Under the pieces are notes generated by a model. It ran no database searches, was not told the origin of the DNA, and worked only from the letters and a program-made list of their open reading frames with translations. Both the position numbers and the translations under genes were made by a program. Shown in pieces: positions 2 through 63,460 of a stretch of DNA of 64,000 nt. Each line of letters begins with the position of its first letter. The first letter of the stretch is position 1. Source of the stretch: Nanobdellota archaeon (GTDB lineage: Archaea > Nanobdellota > Nanobdellia > Pacearchaeales > GW2011-AR1); NCBI GenBank assembly GCA_020053375.1, contig JAGVNG010000017.1, forward strand, positions 26,780-90,779, in the 5' to 3' direction.

Positions 2-1168
2 GCTGATAAGATTACTGGAGTATTTGTTCCGACAATTTTGGTAATGGCTATTCTTACTTTTGCAAATTGGTGGTATTTCTCGCAGGATTTAAGCAGGGCA
101 CTTGGAGTTGGAGTTGCAGTGCTTGTTATTGCTTGTCCCTGCGCCCTTGGACTCGCAACACCTACTGCATTGATGGTTGGAAGTGGAATGGGAGCCAAAA
201 GAGGGATATTAATTAGGAAGGGAGAAGCCATTCAGACAATGAAGGAAGTCAAGACGGTGATATTTGACAAGACGGGAACAATAACAAAAGGAAAACCAGA
301 AGTGAGAGAGATATATTCAAAGGCAAAAGAAAACTATATGATGGAAATTGCTGCAAGCCTGGAAAAATTGAGTGAACATCCTCTTTCAAAGGCTATTGTT
401 AATAAAGCTAACTTGAAGAAATACAAAAAAGTAACTGGATTTAGGGTATTAAGGGGAAGAGGAGTTGAGGGAAAAATTGGCAAGAATGAAGTAATAATTG
501 GAAACACAAATTTAATGAAGGAGAAGAAAATCTCTGTAAAAGAATTTGAGAATAAGATACAGAGCTTTGAGGAGAATGGATACACCACAATAATTGTTTC
601 TGAAAACCATAAGGCTATAGGAATTATGGGAATTGCAGATGCTGTGAAGGAAGATTCCCTAAATGCAATTTTTGAATTGAAGGAATTGGGATTTAGGGTT
701 GTTATGCTTACAGGCGATAATGAAAGGACTGCAAAGGCAATAGCAGAGCAGGTCGGAATAAACGAAGTGATTGCAAATGTGCTTCCGGAAGACAAGGCAA
801 AGAAAGTTGAAGCGCTTCAGCTTGAAGGAATGGTTGCATTTGTGGGGGATGGAATAAATGATGCGCCTGCGTTGAAACAGAGCAATGTCGGAATCGCAAT
901 GGGTTCTGGAAGTGATATAGCCATCGAATCTGGGGATATTGTCCTTGCGAATGGAAGCTTGTCCGGAGTTGTGTCTGCGATAAAATTATCAAAGGCAACA
1001 TTTTCAAAGATAAAACAGAATCTTTTCTGGGCTTTTGCATATAATATTATCGCGATTCCTATCGCGATTGGAGGGCTCCTACATCCAGTCATAGCTGAGA
1101 TTGCGATGGCCCTTTCAAGCATAACTGTTGTGACAAATGCAAATCTGCTGAGAAGAAAGAAGATTTGA
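2..1168 (+). CDS. P-type heavy-metal-translocating ATPase, C-terminal part (5' end lies upstream of window)
   Basis: Reading frame is open from window start; DKTGTIT phosphorylation motif, GDGINDAP hinge motif, C-terminal transmembrane helices. Confidence 0.85.
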   Translation, partial: ADKITGVFVPTILVMAILTFANWWYFSQDLSRALGVGVAVLVIACPCALGLATPTALMVGSGMGAKRGILIRKGEAIQTMKEVKTVIFDKTGTITKGKPEVREIYSKAKENYMMEIAASLEKLSEHPLSKAIVNKANLKKYKKVTGFRVLRGRGVEGKIGKNEVIIGNTNLMKEKKISVKEFENKIQSFEENGYTTIIVSENHKAIGIMGIADAVKEDSLNAIFELKELGFRVVMLTGDNERTAKAIAEQVGINEVIANVLPEDKAKKVEALQLEGMVAFVGDGINDAPALKQSNVGIAMGSGSDIAIESGDIVLANGSLSGVVSAIKLSKATFSKIKQNLFWAFAYNIIAIPIAIGGLLHPVIAEIAMALSSITVVTNANLLRRKKI

Positions 1169-2272: not shown

Positions 2273-5200
2273 ATGGTTAAGGAAAATAGGGAAAATTTCC
2301 CAACTCATTCTCCTATAATCTTAAAAAGTTATGATGCTCGAAGACATATTGCTGTTCAAGAGGCATACTCTTTGTTAAATATCCAACAGGATTCTAATTT
2401 ATCGCCCCAGAAGCTTAAAAACGCTGCTGAGGAAGGCACAATACAAATTTATGAGTTTAATGGAGAACAATACTTTGATAGACTAGACGTAGGAAGAGTT
2501 TACCATCAAACTCCAAAAACAAGCGATGGATTAACCATAGATAGATATTTTTCGAAGCCGGATGAAAATCCCTTCGAAAGTGTTGGAAAATATGAAAAAA
2601 GAAATCTAAAAATTGCAAAAACTGACGGAACAGTGGTCTTTGAGATGAAAGATGCAGAGTTTCCAGAATCCTGGAGAGAGGATTCTTTAAGTATTATAGC
2701 CCAAAAATACTTTTTTAAGCCTGATAAGGCAGAATGGAAGGAAAAATTAAAACAAAGGATAGGTAGGGAGCATGAATTTTCACCTGTTCATTTGATTAAT
2801 CGTGTTACTAATTTTATTGCTGACGCTGGACAGAATCTGGGATATTTTGCAACGGAAGAAGATAAGAGGGCTTTTGCTGATGAGTTAAAATGGCTACAGA
2901 TTAATCAGAGGTTTGCATTTAATTCTCCGGTACAATTTAATGCAGGAATTTTCAATGAATATAAAATTTCAGGGAGCCAATCATTGGGATACTGGAGAAA
3001 TCCTAAAACTGGAGAAGTGCAAAAAAATGAGGCTGGAGAATTTGTAAATCCTCAGTGTCATGCTTGTTTCATTAAGGGTCCAAATGATGATTTGGAAAGT
3101 ATTTTAGAACATGTAAAAGATGAGGGAGCGGTATTTTCATTGGGTTCTGGTATAGGTCAGGAAATAGGAGTTCTAAGGGCAGAGGGAGAACTTCTTTCTG
3201 GCGGAGGGAAGGCATCTGGATCTATGAGCTTTATGAAGGGATATGATTTTTGGGCTGGAGTAATAAAGTCTGGAGGAAAAAGCAGAAGAGCTGCAAGGAT
3301 GACTACTATGAGATATCATCACCCAGATATTATGAAATTTATAAGAAGTAAAGTAAGAGAGGAAAAGAAGGCAAAGGTTTTAGTGGAGAATGGTTATGAA
3401 GGAGGAATGGACGGCGAAGCAATTACTACTGTTGCTTTCCAGAATACAAATATCTCTGTCAGATTGGATGACGACTTCTTTAAAAAATTAAAAGAGGGGG
3501 GAGATGTTGAGCTATTTTATGTTAAATCTGGAAAAGTAGCTGGAAAGGTTTCAGCAGAAAGATTACTCAAAGAATCTGCATTTGGTTCATGGAGAGTTGG
3601 TGATCCCAACATCCAATATGAATCTTCAATTCAGGGGATGCACACTTCTTCAAATTCGGGGAATATCAACTCCAGCAATCCATGCTCAGAATATATGTTT
3701 TTGGATGACACCTCTTGTAATCTATTATCGCATAACCTTGGTAAATATGCTGACGAAAAGGGAAAATTTGATATTGAAGGATTCAGAAAGGGGGTTTATG
3801 TTTCATCAATTGCTTCAGATATTCTTAACGACAGTGCGTCTTATCCAATAAAAAGTATTGCAACAATTAGCCCTGAATTTAGAACAATAGGAGTGGGTTA
3901 TGCAAATCTTGGAGGATTGTTAATGAGAAAAGGAATCGCATATGACTCTGAAAGAGGAAGGGCATTGGCTGCTGCAATTACCTCCTTAATGACTGGAACG
4001 GTTTATGAGGCTTCTGCAGATATGGCTGAAAAATTAGGCACATTTACCCACTTTGAATTTAACAAAAAACCTGCAACTGAGGTTATGAAAAAACATGAAA
4101 AAAACCTTGAAAAAATTCTTTGGCAAGATGTAGACATTCTTGGTTTAAAGGAGGCAGCATATAATTCATGGGAAAAAGTTAATAGAAGAATAAGTGAGGT
4201 TGGAATTAGAAATGCTCAGGCAACTGTATTGGCACCAACAGGAACAATAGCCTATTATATGGGTTGTCAAGATTCTACAGGGGTTGAACCATCACCTTCC
4301 TTAAAGATATTTAAAAATTTAGCTGGAGGTGGTTCAATAGAAGTTGTGAATGAGGAAGTTTCAAATGCTCTTAACAATCTTGGATATTCTGAGCAGCAAA
4401 GAAAAGAAATTATGGAGTTTGTTGATAAAAATGGGGTTGTTGTAGGCGCCCCACAAATGCAATCAAGTCATTATAAAATATTTGATACTGCTTTTGGAAA
4501 TGTCAGAGGGGAAGGGACTATTCCTTTTGAAGGGCATATAAGAATGCTTGGAGCAACGCAACCCTTTATTTCAGGAGCAATTTCAAAAACAAATAATCTT
4601 CCAGAAAGAGCAACTGTCAAAGAAATTTATGATGGTTATATTCTTGGGCATGAATTGGGGCTGAAAGCATTAGCAGTTTTTAGGAATAACAGCAAGATAA
4701 CGAGTGCATTGACTTTTGGAGATAAAAGTTTGGTAAAGCTTAAGAGAGGAGAAAAAGATGATTTGATAACCGAAAGAGGAGCATTTGAAAAAGAAGTTAG
4801 GATAGGAGGTTCTTCTATTCATATGATTGTAAGTGAATATAAGGATGGAAGACCTGGACAAATTGCTTTCTTATCCCATAAATCTGGATCAACTCTTAAA
4901 GCATTATTGGAAACACAAGGGATTTTAGCATCAAAGGCTCTTAAACGAGGTGTTCATTTAAGAGATATAATTGGGGCATGGGAAAGTCAATCTTTTGAAC
5001 CAGGAGGTTTTGTTCAGGGAGATAATTATATAAAAAAGGCTGGCTCACCTTTGGATTATGCTGCAAAAGTATTGAAATTGCATTATCTCGGTGATTTAGA
5101 TGCTGCAGAAAAGAGAGAAGAGGTTAATATAGAAGAATTGCAGGGATTCAAGAATGGAGCGTTTTTACATTATGCAAGAGAAGGAATTGATGATTGGGAT

Positions 5201-15232: not shown

Positions 15233-15685
15233 ATGCCCAAAACATTAGACGATTTTTATTTTAACACTTTAAGAAATAAATTTCAAGAAAGAAAAAGAGA
15301 AATATCATCATCTTACAGAAGGAGAAAAAAAGCTGAAACATTAATATGGAACGGTTTTGAAAATGAAACTAATAGACTTTTGGCTGTTTTTCACTCGGCT
15401 TTTCAAGATTTAACAACAAAATTATTTGAAGCTGGTGATGATGTGTATATAGAAAAATTTACAGAAACATATAATCCTAAAACTGGCAAAATAAGTGTAG
15501 ATATAACTAATGTTAGATACAAAGGAAAAATTTATCCGATAAACGGAAATAAATGGGAGGGGTATTGCCCTCATAAATTATTGGAATCGTTTATATTTGA
15601 AAAAGATAAGAGAGTAAGAAAATTCAAAAAGGACTTTTTTGTGGAAACCATTAATGAGCCTAAGAATGAATGTAAACATCTATAA
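15233..15685 (+). CDS. Hypothetical protein between nusA and rps12 (not L30e)
   Basis: 150 aa ORF; no similarity to L30e, which usually occupies this position. Confidence 0.45.
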   Translation: MPKTLDDFYFNTLRNKFQERKREISSSYRRRKKAETLIWNGFENETNRLLAVFHSAFQDLTTKLFEAGDDVYIEKFTETYNPKTGKISVDITNVRYKGKIYPINGNKWEGYCPHKLLESFIFEKDKRVRKFKKDFFVETINEPKNECKHL

Positions 15686-15791
15686 ATTCCCTCTAAAAAC
15701 CTTTATAGACAAAAAATCAGGAAGTATTTTTAGCTATAAATTTCTTACAAGAAACTTTATAAACCGATTTCTCAATTAATAATATTATACG

Positions 15792-16214
15792 ATGGGATTA
15801 CGAAACGCAGCAAAATTGATGAAAGTGAGGAGAAAATTCAGATGGAAAGACAAGAGTTACAAAGTGAAAACTCTCGGACTTTATGCAAAATCAGACCCGC
15901 TTGAGGGAGCAAATCAGGCCAAGGGAATAGTTCTGCAAAAAGTTCAGAAGGAAGCAAGACAGCCAAACTCTGGAATGAGGAAATGCTGCAAGGTTCAGCT
16001 CACAAAAAACGGAAAAACAGTAACTGCATTCATTCCCGGAAATCTTGCGCAGAAATTCATAGATGAGCACGATGAAGTTTTAATAGAGAGAATTGGCGGA
16101 AGACAGGGAAGAATAAAGGGAGACATTCCTGGAATCAGATTCCAAGTTATTCAAGTAAATGACCAGCCCCTAAGAAGATTGTGGAAGGGCTGGATAGAGA
16201 AGGGTAGAAGATGA
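15792..16214 (+). CDS. rps12: 30S ribosomal protein S12 (uS12)
   Basis: [20 protein letters not shown] block diagnostic of uS12. Confidence 0.9.
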
Positions 16215-23400: not shown

Positions 23401-24684
23401 ATGGCAAGAGAAAAACCAAATATGAACATCGTGTTCGTCGGGCACGTTGACGCTGGAAAGTCAACCATAATCGGAAGATTGCTTTTCGACACTGGCGCTG
23501 TTTCTGAAATGGAAATGAAGAAGTTGAGAGAGGAAGCGGAAAAGCACGGAAAAGTCGGATTCGAATTTGCATACGTAATGGACAAGATTAAAGAGGAAAG
23601 AGAAAGAGGGGTTACAATTGATCTTTCTTACAGAAAGGTAATGACATCAAAATATCAGGTGACAATAATCGACGCGCCTGGGCACAGAGACTTTGTAAAA
23701 AACATGATAACTGGGGCTTCACAGGCTGATGCAGCCTTTTTGGTTATCGCTGCGCAATCTGGAGTTCAACCACAAACAAAGGAACACCTATGGCTATTAA
23801 GGACAATGGGAGTAAGAAATGTTTGTGTTGCCATCAATAAGATGGACGAAATAAAATACGATGAGGCAAAATTCAACAAAGTTAAAGAAGATGTTTCTAT
23901 TCTTTTGAAAACAGTCGGATTAAAACTTGAGAATATTACATTCATTGCGTGCTCTGGATTAAAGGGAGATAATGTTGCTAAAAAAAGCACAACTATGTCA
24001 TGGTACAAGGGACCAACAATATTGGAGCAGTTTGACTTGTTCCCTCAGCCAGAACTGCCTACAAATCTTCCATTGAGAATGCCTGTGCAAGATGTTTATG
24101 AAATAACCGGTATCGGGACAGTCCCTGTAGGAAAGATTGAGACAGGAACAATGAAGCCCGGACTAAAAATAAAAATACTTCCTGGAAGAACAGGAGACGG
24201 TGTTGATGGTGAAATTAAAACGATAGAAATGCATCATGAAGCGCTTCCCGAGGCAAGGGCAGGAGATAATGTTGGATTGAACATAAGAGGAATTGGAAAG
24301 AAGGACATCGCAAGGGGAGATGTGATTTGCGACGCTGCATTCCCTGTTCCTGTTGTAAAAGAATTTATCGCACAGATAGCTGTAATTGACCACCCTACTG
24401 TTTTGGCCAAGGGATACACCCCCGTATTCCACATTCACACAGCGCAGGTTCCTTGCCAGTTTATTGAATTAATAGAGCAGATAGATTCAAAGACAGGACA
24501 AGTCATAAAGAAAAACCCTGATTTCTTGAGAAACGGGGATGTTGCAAAGGTAAGGATAAAGCCGCAGGGAAATCTCTGCCTTGAAACACAGAAGGACAAC
24601 CCGCATATGTCAGGATTTGCAGTAAGAGATGCAGGACAAACAGTTGCAGCAGGAATCTGCATTGAAATAACACAGAAGAAGTAA
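23401..24684 (+). CDS. tuf: Elongation factor 1-alpha (aEF-1alpha)
   Basis: [32 protein letters not shown] motifs; 427 aa. Confidence 0.95.
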
Positions 24685-24685
24685 G
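24643..24685. repeat. Direct repeat copy 1: last 43 nt of tuf including stop codon
   Basis: Matches 25437..25479 at 42/43 positions. Confidence 0.9.
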
Positions 24686-24775: not shown

Positions 24776-25009
24776 ATGGCAAATATAACATTGTCTGTTC
24801 CGGAAGAATTAATGAAAAAAATGAAATTGTTCAGGGAAATAAGATGGAGTGAGGTAGCTAGACGCTCAATAGAGGAAAGAATTGCTGATTTAGAAACCAT
24901 GAACAAAATCGCTTCTAAGAGCAAGTTGACGAAAGAAGATGTTGAAGAGATTGGGAAAAGGATAAAAAGCAGAATGACTAAAACATTCTATGAACACGAT
25001 AGCAATTGA
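24776..25009 (+). CDS. vapB: VapB-like antitoxin (ribbon-helix-helix/CopG-like)
   Basis: 77 aa, MANITLSVPEELMKKMK...WSEVARRSIEERI pattern; overlaps PIN gene by 20 nt. Confidence 0.55.
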   Translation: MANITLSVPEELMKKMKLFREIRWSEVARRSIEERIADLETMNKIASKSKLTKEDVEEIGKRIKSRMTKTFYEHDSN

Positions 25010-25415
25010 TACAAACGTCATAATTTCTGCTCTTCTTAAGGAAGGAATAACAAGAAAGATATTATTAGATTACAAATTCAATTTCATATTCCCTGAATAT
25101 GGTTTAAAAGAAATTTATTTTTATAGAGACTATGTAATAAAGAAATCTGGAATAAAAGATTCTGAATTTGATGTGTTAATGTTAAGATTATTTAAATATG
25201 TAAAATTAGTTCCTCTGCATATTATTAAAAAATTTAGAAAACGTGCAGATGAAATAATGAAAAAAATAGATAAGAAAGATACGGTATTTATTGCAACATC
25301 TCTAGCTTTTAAATGTCCAATTTGGTCTGATGACAGACATTTCAAATTACGAAAAGAAATTAAAGTATATAATACCCAAGAATTCATAAATCTTATGCTC
25401 GATAAGCCAAGATAA
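24990..25415 (+). CDS. vapC: VapC PIN-domain toxin
   Basis: IAIDTNVIISAL (first acidic residue), later FIATSL and WSDDRHF acidic positions of a PIN domain. Confidence 0.75.
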   Translation: MNTIAIDTNVIISALLKEGITRKILLDYKFNFIFPEYGLKEIYFYRDYVIKKSGIKDSEFDVLMLRLFKYVKLVPLHIIKKFRKRADEIMKKIDKKDTVFIATSLAFKCPIWSDDRHFKLRKEIKVYNTQEFINLMLDKPR

Positions 25416-25436: not shown

Positions 25437-25479
25437 GTTGCAGCAGGAATCTGCATTGAAATAACGCAGAAGAAGTAAG
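25437..25479. repeat. Direct repeat copy 2 of the tuf 3' terminus
   Basis: gttgcagcaggaatctgcattgaaataacGcagaagaagtaag; single A->G difference (24672 vs 25466) is synonymous in the tuf frame. Confidence 0.9.
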
Positions 25480-38838: not shown

Positions 38839-39735
38839 ATGAATAAACAAAGTAATAAAGGATATAAAAACATAAGTTATCATAAACCAAAAGAATGTCC
38901 TTATTGTAAGAACAAGAACATTGTTAAGTTTGGATATAGATATAATTGCACGAAGAAAAAGCAACGTTGGAAATGTAAAGATTGTTTTAAACTCTGGGTT
39001 ATAGAAGATGGTTTTTGGAAGATGAAAAAGACAAGAGAGTTGATAACTCAATGTTTAAATTTGTATATGAACGGAATGTCTTTAAGGAAAGTTGCAAGGC
39101 ATATCAATCAATTTTCAGAAGTAAAGACGACTTATAGAAGCGTTCATAATTGGTTAATGAAGTATAGTTTTATGCTTAATCCTTTTTCTCAAACAATAGA
39201 TTATGATTTATCAAGAGTTTATCATGTTGATGAGATTTTTGTTAAGTGTAAGGGTGAACAACATTACTTTTGGGATATTATAGACAGAGATACAAGAGTT
39301 TTAGTTGCTAATCACTACTCAACTAAAAGAGATGGCAGGAGTGCAAGAACATTATTCTTGAAAGTCAAAAATCCACCAATGAGATTATTTTCTGATGGCT
39401 TGCAAGGATATAGAAAAGCATTTAGAAAAGTTTGGGGGCAGAAAACAAGAAGGCAGGATAGATTAATCTACACAAGATTAAAGCAAAGCCAAGATAGAAG
39501 AAATAACATAGTTGAAAGAATACAAGGAACAATCAGAGAAAGAGTAAAGGTTATGCGGGGATTTAAGGCAATTTGGAGTGCTAAAGCATTTCTTGAATTG
39601 TTTGCAGTCTATTATAACTTCTTGCGTTATCACGAAGGTATAGATAGCACACCAATAGAAAAAGCAGGAATTAACCTTAATCTCGAAGGCAACCAATGGC
39701 TAAATCTGATTTATAGGAGTAAGGGAATATTTTAA
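38839..39735 (+). mobile_element. IS6-family transposase gene with N-terminal zinc finger (IS ends not resolved)
   Basis: CPYCKN...CTKKKQRWKCKDC zinc finger, DDE-type core, C-terminal RNNIVERIQGTIRERVKVMRGFKAIWSAKAFLELF block characteristic of IS6/IS26-family transposases. Confidence 0.7.
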
Positions 39736-56170: not shown

Positions 56171-56271
56171 GCGGGTGTGCCGGAGTGGTCAAACGGACAG
56201 CCCTTAAGAGCTAGAGAGCTAAGTGAGGCTGTGGCTTAGTGCCTGCGAAGGTTCGAACCCTTCCATCCGCA
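56171..56271 (+). tRNA. tRNA-Leu (anticodon UAA) with ~17-nt intron after the anticodon loop
   Basis: GCGGGTG acceptor, 3-bp D-stem CCG/CGG, CAGCC-CTTAAGA then a ~17-nt insert before the matching GGCTG strand, long variable arm, GAAGG-TTCGAAC-CCTTC T-arm, CATCCGC-A 3' end. Confidence 0.6.
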
Positions 56272-56323: not shown

Positions 56324-56877
56324 ATGATTAAAGCAATGTTTGGGACATTGGAGGAGTTTTAATAGAAAATCCAGACATAGAAGGATTATGGGGAAATAGC
56401 ACGAAGTCCAAAGAGATAAGAGATAAATTTGGGTCAGGGCAATTAAGTGCAAAAAAATTTATTTCTAAGGCATCAAAACTATTAAATAAATCAGAAGAAG
56501 AATTCATCTCTTCTTATAAAAAAATTTATTCTGTTTCTGAAAGGATAGAGAATACAATTGAGATATATAAAAATGTTAAAGTGAAAAATTATATTTTTTC
56601 AGACACAAATCCATTAAGAGAAGATTTGATAAAAGAAAAAACAAAAGATATTTTTGAAATTGCCACAAAAATATTCCTGTCACATCAGATAAAAAGGGGA
56701 AAGAACGATATGCAAACTTATGAGTATATAATAAATGAAATTGGCCTTAAACCAGAAGAAATATTATTCATAGATGACCATGAAAAGAATATCGTTTTGG
56801 CACAGAAAGCGGGCATAAATGGGATATTATATGAAAATTCCAAAAAACTAAGACAGGATTTAGATAGATTATTATAA
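56324..56877 (+). pseudogene. HAD-family hydrolase with apparent frameshift after the first four codons
   Basis: ATG att aaa gca (MIKA) at 56324 is in a different frame from the long ORF encoding VWDIGGVLIE (HAD motif I) through IDD...AGI motifs; first in-frame start of the long ORF is GTG at 56581. Confidence 0.5.
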
Positions 56878-56897: not shown

Positions 56898-57614
56898 ATG
56901 AACATAAAGAAGATAGACATCTTGATTCTGGTCTTTCTTGTTCTTGCAGTTCTCTCTTTGAATTATTCTCCTATTGATTCTTTTCTTGAGCAGGCTTTTT
57001 CGTCAAGGCAGGAAGTTCTTGTTGAAAGGGTAATAGATGGAGACACTGTTGAATCAGACATAGGAAACATAAGGCTTTTAGGAATTAACACTCCCGAGAG
57101 AGGAGAAATTTATTATGAGGGGGCAAAGAAGTTTCTTGAATCAAGGATTTTTAATAAAACAGTTGAACTTGAATTCGGAAAAGACAAGCGGGACAAATAT
57201 AACAGAACACTTGCTTATCTTTTTCTTGACGGGAAAAACATAAATATTGAGATAGTGAAAAATGGTTTCGCTAATTATTATTTTTATGGCGGAAGAGACA
57301 AATATTCAAGTGATTTGGAGAATGCATGGACAATTTGCGTTAATAATAAAATAAATCTATGCGAACCTTCAGCAAATCAATGTTCATCCTGCATAATTAT
57401 TAAGGATTCCGGCGCTTTAAAAAATATCTGCGGTTTTTCGTGCAACATAACTGGATGGAAAATAAAAGCAGAAGGGAGAAACAACACGATTTTTCAAAGT
57501 GAAATCCTGAACAGCGGAGAAGAAGTTTTATTTAAGCTTGAGCTGATAGGAACAGGAGACACAATCTTTTTGCGGGACAGGGAGGGAAAACTGGCGCTTT
57601 GGAAGAAATATTGA
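56898..57614 (+). CDS. Thermonuclease (SNase-like) family protein with N-terminal signal/anchor and Cys-rich C-terminal domain
   Basis: VERVIDGDTVESDIGNIRLLGINTPE...KDKRDKYNRTLAYLFLDGKNINIEIVKNGFA matches the staphylococcal-nuclease fold. Confidence 0.7.
   Translation: MNIKKIDILILVFLVLAVLSLNYSPIDSFLEQAFSSRQEVLVERVIDGDTVESDIGNIRLLGINTPERGEIYYEGAKKFLESRIFNKTVELEFGKDKRDKYNRTLAYLFLDGKNINIEIVKNGFANYYFYGGRDKYSSDLENAWTICVNNKINLCEPSANQCSSCIIIKDSGALKNICGFSCNITGWKIKAEGRNNTIFQSEILNSGEEVLFKLELIGTGDTIFLRDREGKLALWKKY
57585..57612. repeat. Direct repeat copy 1: last 28 nt of the thermonuclease gene
   Basis: ggaaaactggcgctttggaagaaatatt; matches 58841..58868 except a synonymous third-position a/g. Confidence 0.85.
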
Positions 57615-57634
57615 GAGCAGAAAATTCAGCAGTT

Positions 57635-58123
57635 TTATTTCAGCATATTCTTTATATGTGAGACAAAAAGGGTAGCATTATGCATTGAATCCTCAGCGGG
57701 ATCCTTATTTGCTTGCGGAAAAGTCTTGTATGTGAATTTCCCCCTTTTTGATTTTTCATCCTTCATTATTTGCAGTAAATCTTCTGCCCTTATTAGCATT
57801 TTTTCATAAGCTTCCAGAATATGCTTGTCTAATTTTCCGCTGCCTACAAATATCCTCTTGAATTCATCATATGCTTTATTATGAATGAATGGAGCAGAGA
57901 TTTTTATTCCTGCGTTCAATAAAGCAGCCCTTGCAGAATAAAAGAGGGAATAATAAGAATGGTTTATGACTGAACTGTAAAATGTTGTTTTTGCGGGAAC
58001 AGCCAGATTATTCTTTAAAACGTCTTCTTCGCTTATTCGTTTTAGGGCCTTGGCTGCAAGAAGTTCATTATCTGCCCTCTCCAATAAAAATTTAACCTCT
58101 GAATCCATGTTTAATTGCCTCAT
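57635..58123 (-). CDS. HEPN-domain protein (toxin component of HEPN/MNT pair)
   Basis: ...NHSYYSLFYSARAALLNAGIKISAPFIHNKAYDEF... resembles the HEPN helical core; overlaps the MNT gene by 32 nt. Confidence 0.5.
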   Translation of the reverse strand: MRQLNMDSEVKFLLERADNELLAAKALKRISEEDVLKNNLAVPAKTTFYSSVINHSYYSLFYSARAALLNAGIKISAPFIHNKAYDEFKRIFVGSGKLDKHILEAYEKMLIRAEDLLQIMKDEKSKRGKFTYKTFPQANKDPAEDSMHNATLFVSHIKNMLK

Positions 58124-58718
58124 TTATTATTGCATAATATTGTGAGCCACCATAGAATATAAGATTATGCCTTACAGATTCCTTACTGTAATTTTCTTCT
58201 TCATCCAAGAGCATATCTAAAAATTGCTTGCTTGTAAAAACATAAGGATGAACTGGGGGGATGCTTGTCTCGCTTTCATGGCTTATTTGGGCATAGATGC
58301 TCTTGGGATTAACTTTATCATCACAAATAACAGCAATATCCAAATCAGATTCTTTATTTTGGGTTTTCTTAGCATAACTTCCTGTAAGCAGGAGAATAAA
58401 AAATTTGGTTGGAATTTTGTTTCTTATATTTTCTATAATCTGCAGGGGAATCTGCTTTTGATTCCAAGAAATATACTCATGCAAAAATCCCATATAGCTT
58501 TGTGCAGAAACTGAAGACAGATTAAGAATGTAAAGAATAGACTTGCCTACTTTTTCGGTAACAATAATCTTTTCTTTTTCCAGCCTTTTCAAGGCGCTAT
58601 AAATATATCCCTTTGAGCGATTTTTAGTTATTTTTTGGATTTCAGAATATGTTAATTTCTTCCAAGGTTCTTTTAAAAAAGCCGAATCAATATGGTATTG
58701 TTCTTTTAGTATTTCCAT
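58092..58718 (-). CDS. Minimal nucleotidyltransferase (MNT) with N-terminal winged helix
   Basis: LLLTGSYAKKTQNKESDLDIAVI = GS...D.D Pol-beta-type NTase motif; N-terminal wHTH. Confidence 0.7.
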   Translation of the reverse strand: MEILKEQYHIDSAFLKEPWKKLTYSEIQKITKNRSKGYIYSALKRLEKEKIIVTEKVGKSILYILNLSSVSAQSYMGFLHEYISWNQKQIPLQIIENIRNKIPTKFFILLLTGSYAKKTQNKESDLDIAVICDDKVNPKSIYAQISHESETSIPPVHPYVFTSKQFLDMLLDEEENYSKESVRHNLIFYGGSQYYAIINEAIKHGFRG

Positions 58719-58840
58719 CTTAAAGTCTATATACTTATAAGTCCTATTTTATAGACTATATAGTCCTATATTATAGACTTTAAATAACTTTCGTTCTTAA
58801 GCTTGCTCAAAAAATCTGATTTTTCATAAGTGGGATATGG

Positions 58841-58868
58841 GGGAAACTGGCGCTTTGGAAGAAATATT
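58841..58868. repeat. Direct repeat copy 2 of the thermonuclease 3' terminus
   Basis: gggaaactggcgctttggaagaaatatt followed by TAG; still reads GKLALWKKY-stop. Confidence 0.85.
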
Positions 58869-58959
58869 AGGTGATTTAGAGGTTGAAGAAAAGAGGTATT
58901 AATCTTTAAGTAGCAACTTTAAATAGATTTATAAACATTAAATTAAATATCAAGTTACA

Positions 58960-63015: not shown

Positions 63016-63057
63016 ACTCCGTATGCAGAAACCCTTAAAAACTCACGTTTTATCCTT

Positions 63058-63324
63058 AATGTCGTAGACTAGGTTGGCAGGTTAGCCCTCTGCCGCTTGC
63101 AAACGGGCTTTATGGCAGACTGCAAGGAGTGGCGTGATTAGCGCGTCGATAAGTCTCTATTCCGACGTTGACGTTTTGTCCGCTTTGATCTTGCATATGC
63201 GAAACGGGTCAGGCCTTGATCGGAGCAGCCCTAAACATTTGCGTGGATGCTTAACGGGTAGCAAAGCCGAGAGAGAACAGAGGAAGCTTCTTCGACAATC
63301 TATGAGCAAAACTCCGAGTCTACA
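63058..63324 (+). ncRNA. Signal recognition particle RNA (7S-like), tentative
   Basis: ~50% GC island in a 33% GC genome; GGGTCAGGCC...GGAGCAGCCCTAAAC resembles the SRP RNA helix-8 motif; 5' GTAGACTAGG can pair with 3' CCGAGTCTAC. Confidence 0.45.
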
Positions 63325-63460
63325 AAGAATGCCGAAGCATCGTCATTCTGGAGGAAATCGCCAAAGCGTTGTCAATTTGGAGCAAAACTCCGAGTCTACA
63401 CTTTAAAATATACTTCTAAACATATCAATATTTATATAATTAAAAATAATTAAAAAATAA

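Follow-up and report, generated by a model that had tools for sequence, protein, structure and literature searches.

Direct repeats of housekeeping-gene ends flank putative toxin-antitoxin cassettes in DPANN archaea

We analyzed a 64,000-nucleotide (nt) stretch of DNA from a Nanobdellota archaeon (assembly GCA_020053375.1, contig JAGVNG010000017.1, positions 26,780 to 90,779; hereafter the window), in which a two-gene cassette encoding a minimal nucleotidyltransferase (MNT) and a HEPN-like partner lies behind an SNase/thermonuclease-family gene and is bracketed by two copies of the 3' end of that gene. Flanking direct repeats of host DNA are a property of the cassette family to which this pair belongs, and sequence differences between the copies indicate that two alleles of a working gene end have been brought together. 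The best explanation, to which we assign a probability of about 50%, is homology-guided recombination in which a copy of the gene end travels with the cassette. The window is a low-GC (35%) DPANN archaeal contig, and its nearest relatives are annotated as Pacearchaeota, Woesearchaeota or Nanoarchaeota. The features of the locus are as follows (related loci are given by L numbers).

56898–57614, plus strand: SNase/thermonuclease-family host gene, 238 amino acids, intact; Pfam SNase 1.7e-16; ends in GKLALWKKY, stop TGA.
57584–57612, plus strand: direct-repeat copy 1, the working in-frame 3' end of the SNase gene, GGGAAAACTGGCGCTTTGGAAGAAATATT.
57615–57634: left junction, the 20 nt separating the stops of SNase and HEPN, not shared with cassettes in other contexts.
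57635–58123, minus strand: HEPN-like partner gene, 162 amino acids; Pfam HEPN 0.0026, 18.3 bits against a cut-off of 22.
58092–58718, minus strand: MNT gene with a winged helix-turn-helix (wHTH), putative antitoxin/autorepressor, 208 amino acids; Pfam Polbeta 7.8e-7, NTP_transf_2 1.3e-6.
58719–58804, minus strand: predicted promoter/operator region of the cassette, with a perfect 12-nt inverted repeat (58720–58731 / 58772–58783) plus TATAGACT repeats.
58805–58839: right junction, 35 nt, common only to the window and L157.
58840–58868, plus strand: direct-repeat copy 2, an orphan SNase 3' end with TAG after it, GGGGAAACTGGCGCTTTGGAAGAAATATT.

The original prediction, made from the sequence of the window, described a 28-nt repeat of the gene end. 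A repeat search recovered the pair as 29 nt with one mismatch, 25 nt of which are exact, at a spacing of 1256 nt. Copy 2 would encode the same nine residues as copy 1 and then TAG, and the two copies differ, as had been claimed, only at a synonymous Gly codon (GGA/GGG) and in the stop codon (TGA/TAG). The orphan copy lies outside any long open reading frame (ORF), with an in-frame TGA at 58817–58819. At up to three mismatches, the 29-mer has only these two sites within the window, and none of 100 dinucleotide-preserving shuffles of the window (0/100) produced a match, confirming that the repeat is real and not a product of chance. The C-terminal GKLxxW of the SNase protein is kept in orthologues both with and without a cassette.

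Across the whole window, direct repeats sharing an exact 18-mer or longer at a spacing of 300–5000 nt comprise only the SNase pair and a second pair at the end of the EF-1alpha (tuf) gene. The parallel that had been drawn with a vapBC pair behind tuf holds, since a 43-nt repeat of the tuf end surrounds a VapB-like/PIN pair:

23401–24684: EF-1alpha gene, the last 43 nt of which are duplicated downstream.
24643–24685 and 25437–25479, plus strand: tuf-end repeat around the VapB-like/PIN pair, 43 nt, one synonymous mismatch.
24776–25009: VapB-like gene, enclosed by the tuf-end repeats.
24990–25415: PIN gene (PIN_2, 1.6e-24), enclosed by the tuf-end repeats.

To place the SNase case in its family, we assembled 154 loci encoding MNT relatives from genome and metagenome collections and searched for the longest direct repeat linking the 600 nt upstream of the MNT-HEPN pair with the 900 nt downstream of it. 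An exact repeat of at least 17 nt was found at 20/119 loci, compared with 0/119 in an inverted control, and by local alignment 28 of 115 loci scored above the maximum of two controls. Flanking direct repeats were present at 25/97 real loci versus 5/359 pseudo-cassettes, that is, positions shifted by 2.5–4.5 kb within the same loci (Fisher odds ratio 24.6, p=6e-14). The repeats range from 18 to 175 nt in length and are locus-specific in sequence; no core motif is shared among those of different loci, and the distance from cassette to repeat varies. Where they could be identified, the repeats are host DNA. Several are gene 3' ends, namely those of polB (L120, L105/L104, L109, L044), dUTPase (L071), SNase and EF-1alpha; the polB and dUTPase loci have MNT-HEPN pairs behind other genes with duplicated ends. 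Others come from the 5' end of a gene: in L126 a PD-(D/E)XK nuclease gene, in L059 a DUF58 gene. In L004, the repeated DNA lies upstream of an ABC-transporter gene that follows a tRNA. Repeat-bracketed cassettes are therefore general but not confined to gene 3' ends, as 5' ends and intergenic DNA are also involved. Two further close cassette relatives (L172, L174) have no flanking repeat, no MNT relative was found in viral contigs, and Rfam at its gathering threshold recognized none of the recurrent flanking repeats.

The variable length of the repeats, their varied targets including gene 5' ends and intergenic DNA, and the variable distance between cassette and repeat are all in keeping with the main rival explanation, an in situ "insertion with long target duplication". 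Here the cassette, carrying no handle, would enter where the DNA had a staggered break or by a template switch during replication, 20–175 nt of the host would be duplicated on the spot, and silent differences between the copies would arise later, through exchange of the working gene with alleles of relatives. This explanation also has a published precedent in the variable 30–400-bp duplications that flank restriction-modification (RM) units lacking mobility genes. We nevertheless regard it as rather unlikely, on the grounds of what is seen at polB and at silent sites.

The polB site offers the clearest evidence for a travelling gene-end copy. In four genomes, the MNT-HEPN pair lies directly after polB, and an orphan copy of the last ~10 polB codons lies beyond the HEPN gene. 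Between L120 and L105 the cassette is 92.2% identical at the nucleotide level and polB 67.1%, while between L120 and L044 the values are 70.9% for the cassette and 76.9% for polB. A similar discordance is seen behind SNase: the window cassette is 86% identical (nt) to that of L079 and 79% to that of L001, whereas the SNase proteins are 52% and 62% identical, respectively, so that the order of cassette identity (L079 > L001) is opposite to the order for SNase; the SNase relatives L164, L165 and L161, which are closer than L001 and L079, have no cassette. By these sequence comparisons, cassette divergence does not track host divergence at either the SNase or the polB end. The return of one cassette lineage to the same gene end in diverged hosts is left unexplained by duplication on the spot. 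Moreover, the start of the repeat is identical in L120, L105 and L109 (KKQ codons, 31 nt), and independent in situ events would not yield identical boundaries in three polB-end genomes. The orphan copy of L109 matches the working polB end of L120 exactly and shows three silent differences from L109's own end. L044 has the polB end three times over, and the copies part two different cassettes, with an AAA_14/DUF4143 gene set off from the MNT-HEPN pair; serial insertion at one handle would give such an array.

We then compared the two copies in seven pairs derived from coding 3' ends, namely window SNase, window EF-1alpha, dUTPase (L071) and polB (L120, L105, L109, L044). Seventeen of the 24 differences between copies were silent, and four of the seven non-silent ones fell in the boundary codon; stop codons were conserved as stops (TGA/TAG, TGA/TAA, TAA/TAG). 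For comparison, silent changes make up 19% of all possible single-nucleotide changes in these segments. The probability of at least 17/24 is 3e-6 at p=0.25 and 2e-3 at p=0.40. This silent-site bias, together with the identity of the L109 orphan to the L120 working end, argues that both copies have a coding history, and indicates that they diverged as parts of working genes, i.e. as two alleles that were subsequently brought together. In situ duplication followed by mutation and neutral decay of the orphan is disfavored because the differences would then be expected to be random and mostly in the orphan, rather than 17/24 silent (P ~2e-3 even at a generous silent fraction of 40%).

The DNA between the SNase-end repeats, 1227 nt in length, contains two minus-strand ORFs that overlap by 32 nt, in agreement with the predicted overlapping MNT/HEPN pair on the opposite strand. 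Both Pfam scores of the MNT protein, for Polbeta and NTP_transf_2, are above the cut-offs; residues G113, S114, D125 and D127 of its GS...DxD motif are invariant among 27 homologues, and its N-terminal part is wHTH-like. The family profile matches MntA (PDB 5yep) at 7e-5, whereas the NCBIfam model MntA_antitoxin gives 1.3e-6 for the window protein, under its cut-off. The family profile of the partner matches PDB HEPN chains 9xbd_A (7e-4) and AF0298/2hsb (2e-3). A single-sequence AF2 model of the partner, of low confidence (pLDDT 66), has HEPN proteins as its best PDB fold matches, weak ones at E=0.02–0.17. The HEPN-like gene adjoins or follows MNT in nearly all of ~150 related loci. The catalytic Rx4-6H motif is absent from this protein, and R127-x4-Y132 is invariant instead (20 homologues). 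The earlier designation of the pair as a HEPN/MNT toxin-antitoxin (TA) module is borne out for the MNT motif, the wHTH-like part and the pairing of the genes; since the partner lacks the Rx4-6H motif, its toxin role, and with it the toxin/antitoxin activity of the pair, is inferred.

In blastn searches, homology to cassettes in unrelated contexts extends from the HEPN stop (57634/57635) to ~58782–58804, ~80 nt upstream of MNT, and therefore delimits a unit of ~1.17 kb with its own promoter. The palindromic region at 58720–58783 is consistent with a predicted autoregulated operator, and the operator motif upstream of MNT is also present in relatives, e.g. L001. A blastn-short search with the junction spacers (57615–57634 and 58805–58839) gave nothing informative except L157. 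The insert's GC content does not set it apart as foreign.

An ORF and Pfam scan of both ORFs of the insert found no recombinase, integrase or transposase gene, and a repeat search found no terminal inverted repeats pairing its two ends. A tyrosine recombinase might instead have acted in trans, whether the integrase of a larger element, an Xer-type or an integron-type enzyme; the repeat would then be an att core, and the cassette what is left of an integrative element, either non-autonomous or decayed. Such elements usually restore the 3' end of the gene they target and leave direct repeats, and the surroundings of some related cassettes are suggestive in this respect. L051 (48–6770) has six same-strand, hairpin-containing repeat copies between two MNT-HEPN pairs and an RHH+PIN pair, and similar arrays are found in L023 (5845/7127/8226) and L153 (2037–4837), the arrays holding three to six copies. 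These arrays resemble archaeal integron-type attC clusters, and archaeal integrons and attC clusters with TA cassettes as cargo are on record (Ghaly et al. 2022, PMC9668308). Other related cassettes lie in tRNA-flanked islands (L096, L054), and those of L068 and L066 lie within larger repeat-bounded islands. At the window locus, however, we found no hairpin or attC-like structure at either junction (by inspection and repeat search; no attC covariance model was used), and the hairpin-repeat families of L023, L051, L153, L135, L156 and L005 are absent from the window. No tyrosine recombinase or integrase was found among the window ORFs scanned (18 large ORFs and further ones). Since, in addition, the repeats have no common core and vary widely in length, action of a recombinase in trans seems improbable to us.

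As to the islands themselves, the MNT-HEPN cassette of L096 (5827–9439) sits within a 3.5-kb island bounded by 68-nt tRNA-derived repeats, and in L054 (7106–8833) a second wHTH-MNT/HEPN pair lies between 94-nt repeats resembling a tRNA 3' end. The sole mobility-type gene among the large ORFs of the window is a 298-amino-acid ORF at 38839–39735 (plus strand; DDE_Tnp_IS240, 3.7e-19), 18 kb away.

Repeats of this kind are not restricted to MNT-HEPN pairs. Among the other short-range repeats of these genomes are some around mazEF pairs, vapBC-like pairs and further MNT-HEPN pairs, and repeat-bracketed TA pairs of several families are common there. We noted mazE-mazF pairs beside an MNT-HEPN cassette that are themselves bracketed by direct repeats, of 40 nt in L005/L095 (5106–5827) and 30 nt in L135 (130–789). 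The repeats of L034/L149 and L065 were also considered as target duplications and were rejected, as they are paralogous small genes (XRE-type HTH and others) of neighboring cassettes.

We also examined the SNase locus in relatives of the window. L161, L164, L165 and L166, whose SNase is 67–71% identical to that of the window, have one copy of the gene end and no cassette, and in these loci SNase is followed by a 53-amino-acid gene or directly by a signal recognition particle (SRP)-like RNA gene. L001 and L079 (SNase 62% and 52%) do have an MNT-HEPN cassette, placed between SNase and the SRP-like RNA gene and with no detectable repeat. Likewise, the relatives L167–L171 have a single copy of the tuf end, no vapBC and a different downstream gene from that of the window. 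An ancestral tandem duplication unrelated to the cassette was thus not seen: cassette-free relatives have single SNase and tuf ends.

The nearest SNase relative, L157 (SNase 76–77%), keeps the arrangement of the window, with both copies of the SNase end around a remnant of the cassette. Positions 4422–4643 of L157 correspond to window 57635–57810 joined to 58820–58870, and the deletion lies exactly between the copies of a short microhomology:

57800–57810 and 58820–58830, plus strand: TTTTTCATAAG, 11 nt, between the copies of which the L157 cassette was deleted.

The L157 cassette has hence decayed by microhomology deletion: a 175-nt piece of HEPN remains, with 91% identity to the window, and so do the right junction and the orphan SNase end. 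Because L157 shares the right junction and the orphan copy, the insertion in the window predates the split between the two lineages. The L157 orphan copy has 3–4 mismatches to the window copies versus 7–8 of 30 to its own working SNase end, a pattern that fits, without proving, travel of the gene-end copy with the cassette. Window and L157 are 91% identical in the HEPN remnant, 85% in arginyl-tRNA synthetase (ArgRS), 77% in SNase, 75% in the downstream intergenic region and 79% in a 587/590-amino-acid gene, values that lie too close together to decide between transfer and vertical descent.

The junction and orphan copy shared with L157 also lend themselves to a further explanation, in which the repeat has long been inherited vertically in a variable hot spot, its copies kept similar by gene conversion, or else is an assembly artefact. 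The interval between SNase and the SRP-like RNA gene is indeed variable in every relative examined. This explanation is at odds with the single SNase end and single tuf end of cassette-free relatives and with an enrichment of repeats that is specific to the cassette position; in addition, dozens of assemblies made independently show the footprint, and the mismatches between its copies are not what an artefact of collapsed repeats would leave. We therefore consider it very improbable.

Several further observations concern these loci. The SRP-like RNA gene of the window (63028–63415, plus strand) is 83% identical to the L164 copy and was not called by Rfam at the gathering threshold. Its last 21 nt are duplicated exactly (63304–63324 and 63380–63400) around a 55-nt insert, with an analogous duplication in L164 and a single copy in L001 and L166; this duplication may be what a further insertion at a conserved gene end left behind. 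L079 has a short ORF, MKKVDFLNKIREEGKLKIVEPSEEMKIL, at 240–330 (plus strand), between the cassette and the SRP-like RNA gene, which looks like a fragment of another small cassette gene and suggests repeated insertions in the interval. We also considered ATTAGAAACCCTTAA, located upstream of MNT in L001, as a relic of the SNase end, and rejected it, as the sequence serves the adjacent SRP-like RNA gene as promoter and is found in the same place in L161, L164 and L165. L001, which has the cassette behind SNase, also carries a match to the Rfam RT-16 RNA (15674–15850, plus strand, 102 bits) beside a 257-amino-acid gene.

On the explanation we favor, homology-guided recombination, cassette DNA already carrying a short copy of the SNase 3' end would have come from a relative with the same placement, and the carried copy would have recombined with the resident SNase 3' end, in one cross-over with a circular intermediate, or in an ends-in event equivalent to it, performed by the recombination machinery of the host. 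The host gene would stay intact and one copy of its end would be left on each side of the cassette. Later, the repeats could loop the cassette out together with one copy, ready for any genome with the same conserved gene end, and its retention would be helped if the MNT-HEPN pair acts as an addiction module. Homology-guided recombination is favored because the same gene ends are reused across hosts, repeat boundaries are shared, serial arrays occur (L044), differences are biased toward silent sites and no recombinase gene is present; the circular intermediate and the role of host recombination are parts of the scheme that we infer. A more far-reaching version, which we hold tentatively and at less than even odds, is that TA cassettes of DPANN archaea are recombinase-free mobile elements whose attachment site is a captured 25–45-nt copy of a housekeeping gene end (SNase, polB, EF-1alpha, dUTPase), the circular cassette being integrated there by host recombination and looped out via the repeats. 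If true, addiction modules would have a full life cycle in which they propagate themselves with no integrase, transposase or vector.

Several observations weigh against homology-guided recombination. Both polB-end copies of L105 carry the lineage-specific ...LDGF end, despite a cassette 92% identical to those at ...LGEF ends; as an LGEF donor would leave one LGEF copy, L105 counts against simple transfer of a handle, and its two copies of its own allele are as in situ duplication would have them. The silent-site bias is not significant at an assumed silent fraction of 0.55 (p=0.086), and a later replacement of the working gene by the allele of a relative could mimic it. The identities between the window and L157 are compatible with vertical descent under constraint (HEPN remnant 91% versus ArgRS 85%). 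Among the relatives examined, there is no empty site with both flanks conserved for either the SNase or the tuf case: the cassette-free loci have a single SNase end (L161, L164–L166) or tuf end (L167–L171), but their downstream neighbor differs, and the comparison with orthologous thermonuclease loci thus bore out the single gene end without supplying a strict empty site. We found no circle junction or circular contig, and no fetched contig had terminal overlaps. Recombination over 25–45 nt of homology has not been demonstrated for these organisms. Finally, ~75% of loci, including the SNase-adjacent L001 and L079, have no detectable repeat. The general gain of cassettes at conserved gene ends that the original prediction proposed is supported by repeat enrichment, recurrence of sites, the silent bias and the bracketing of other TA pairs, with the use of 5' ends and intergenic DNA and the repeat-free three-quarters of loci as caveats.

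The closest known precedent appears to be the "insertion with long target duplication" of RM units (Nobusato et al. 2000; Furuta, Abe & Kobayashi 2010, PMC2853133), which lack mobility genes and insert by an unknown mechanism. These units have long, variable (30–400 bp), locus-specific flanking repeats that often overlap the 3' end of the neighboring gene; in a Haemophilus influenzae case, 46-bp repeats overlap 15 bp of a gene end, and a cycle of invasion, repeat-mediated release and re-invasion was hypothesized. The work concerned bacterial RM systems only, with no archaeal case passing the screen for long target duplication (PMC2853133), and a later review ascribes this behavior to RM units and not to classical TA pairs. 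Like RM units, the window case is a putative addiction-type unit without a mobility gene, flanked by locus-specific repeats of host DNA that vary in length. Furuta et al. 2010 considered units below 20 kb without a mobility gene, and the insert here has 1227 nt and two ORFs; they required a duplication above 30 bp, and the SNase repeat has 29 nt (25 exact), slightly below this limit, the tuf repeat 43 nt and those of related loci 18–175 nt; they required the repeat to be otherwise unique, and the SNase repeat has two matches only within the window at up to three mismatches. They also asked for a related genome with one repeat copy between conserved flanks; here the cassette-free relatives have a different downstream neighbor, and L157, the closest one, is a filled site in decay. 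Unlike RM units, the cargo here consists of TA-type pairs, the hosts are DPANN archaea, the repeats are often shorter (18–45 nt), there are silent differences between the copies, and one and the same gene end serves in diverged hosts. The silent differences and the reuse of gene ends point to a travelling homology handle rather than duplication on the spot.

Likenesses to other systems are more limited. As in the type VII HEPN-MNT system (Shewanella MntA/HepT, PDB 5yep), the genes are adjacent, overlapping and co-oriented, and encode an MNT with GS...DxD and a HEPN-like partner; unlike MntA, the window MNT has an N-terminal wHTH and scores below the cut-off of the MntA model, and its partner belongs to a UPF0332/PF05168-like HEPN branch with an invariant R-x4-Y in place of the catalytic R-x4-6-H. 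Integrative elements that target gene 3' ends, and cis-mobilizable att-flanked remnants, similarly have repeats that restore the gene end and an orphan copy on the far side, but the window case has no integrase or conserved att core, its repeats vary in length and its cargo is two genes. With integron cassettes it shares TA pairs as small promoter-bearing mobile units, but it has no attC-like hairpin and its flanking repeat is coding sequence of a neighboring housekeeping gene. Unlike DNA transposons, it has no terminal inverted repeats, and the duplications are 18–175 nt and not of a fixed short length. In the literature we searched, the coverage of which was incomplete, no account was found of archaeal TA cassettes lying between duplicated ends of housekeeping genes. 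What is new is the TA-type cargo, the DPANN hosts and the evidence for a travelling homology handle, whereas the footprint itself has a bacterial precedent.

Elsewhere around the SNase gene, a tRNA of ~100 nt at 56171–56271 (plus strand) was found by Rfam and missed by ARAGORN; an intron is presumably present, in keeping with an archaeal origin. A 98-amino-acid ORF just upstream of SNase (56581–56877, plus strand) matches only the C-terminal third of HAD-type hydrolases and may be a gene fragment. An exact look-up of the SNase and MNT proteins of the window returned no match.

The movement of chromosomal TA pairs, which are plainly mobile yet mostly without a mobility gene, has been a long-standing gap. 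If gene-end copies are portable homology handles, they would provide a concrete and testable mechanism for it. Such a mechanism would explain the build-up of cassettes behind housekeeping genes in the tiny, recombinase-poor genomes of DPANN archaea, and would link TA cassettes to the unexplained "long target duplication" insertions of bacterial RM systems. In metagenome-assembled genomes, moreover, cassettes gained recently can be spotted computationally with ease by their orphan gene-end copies.

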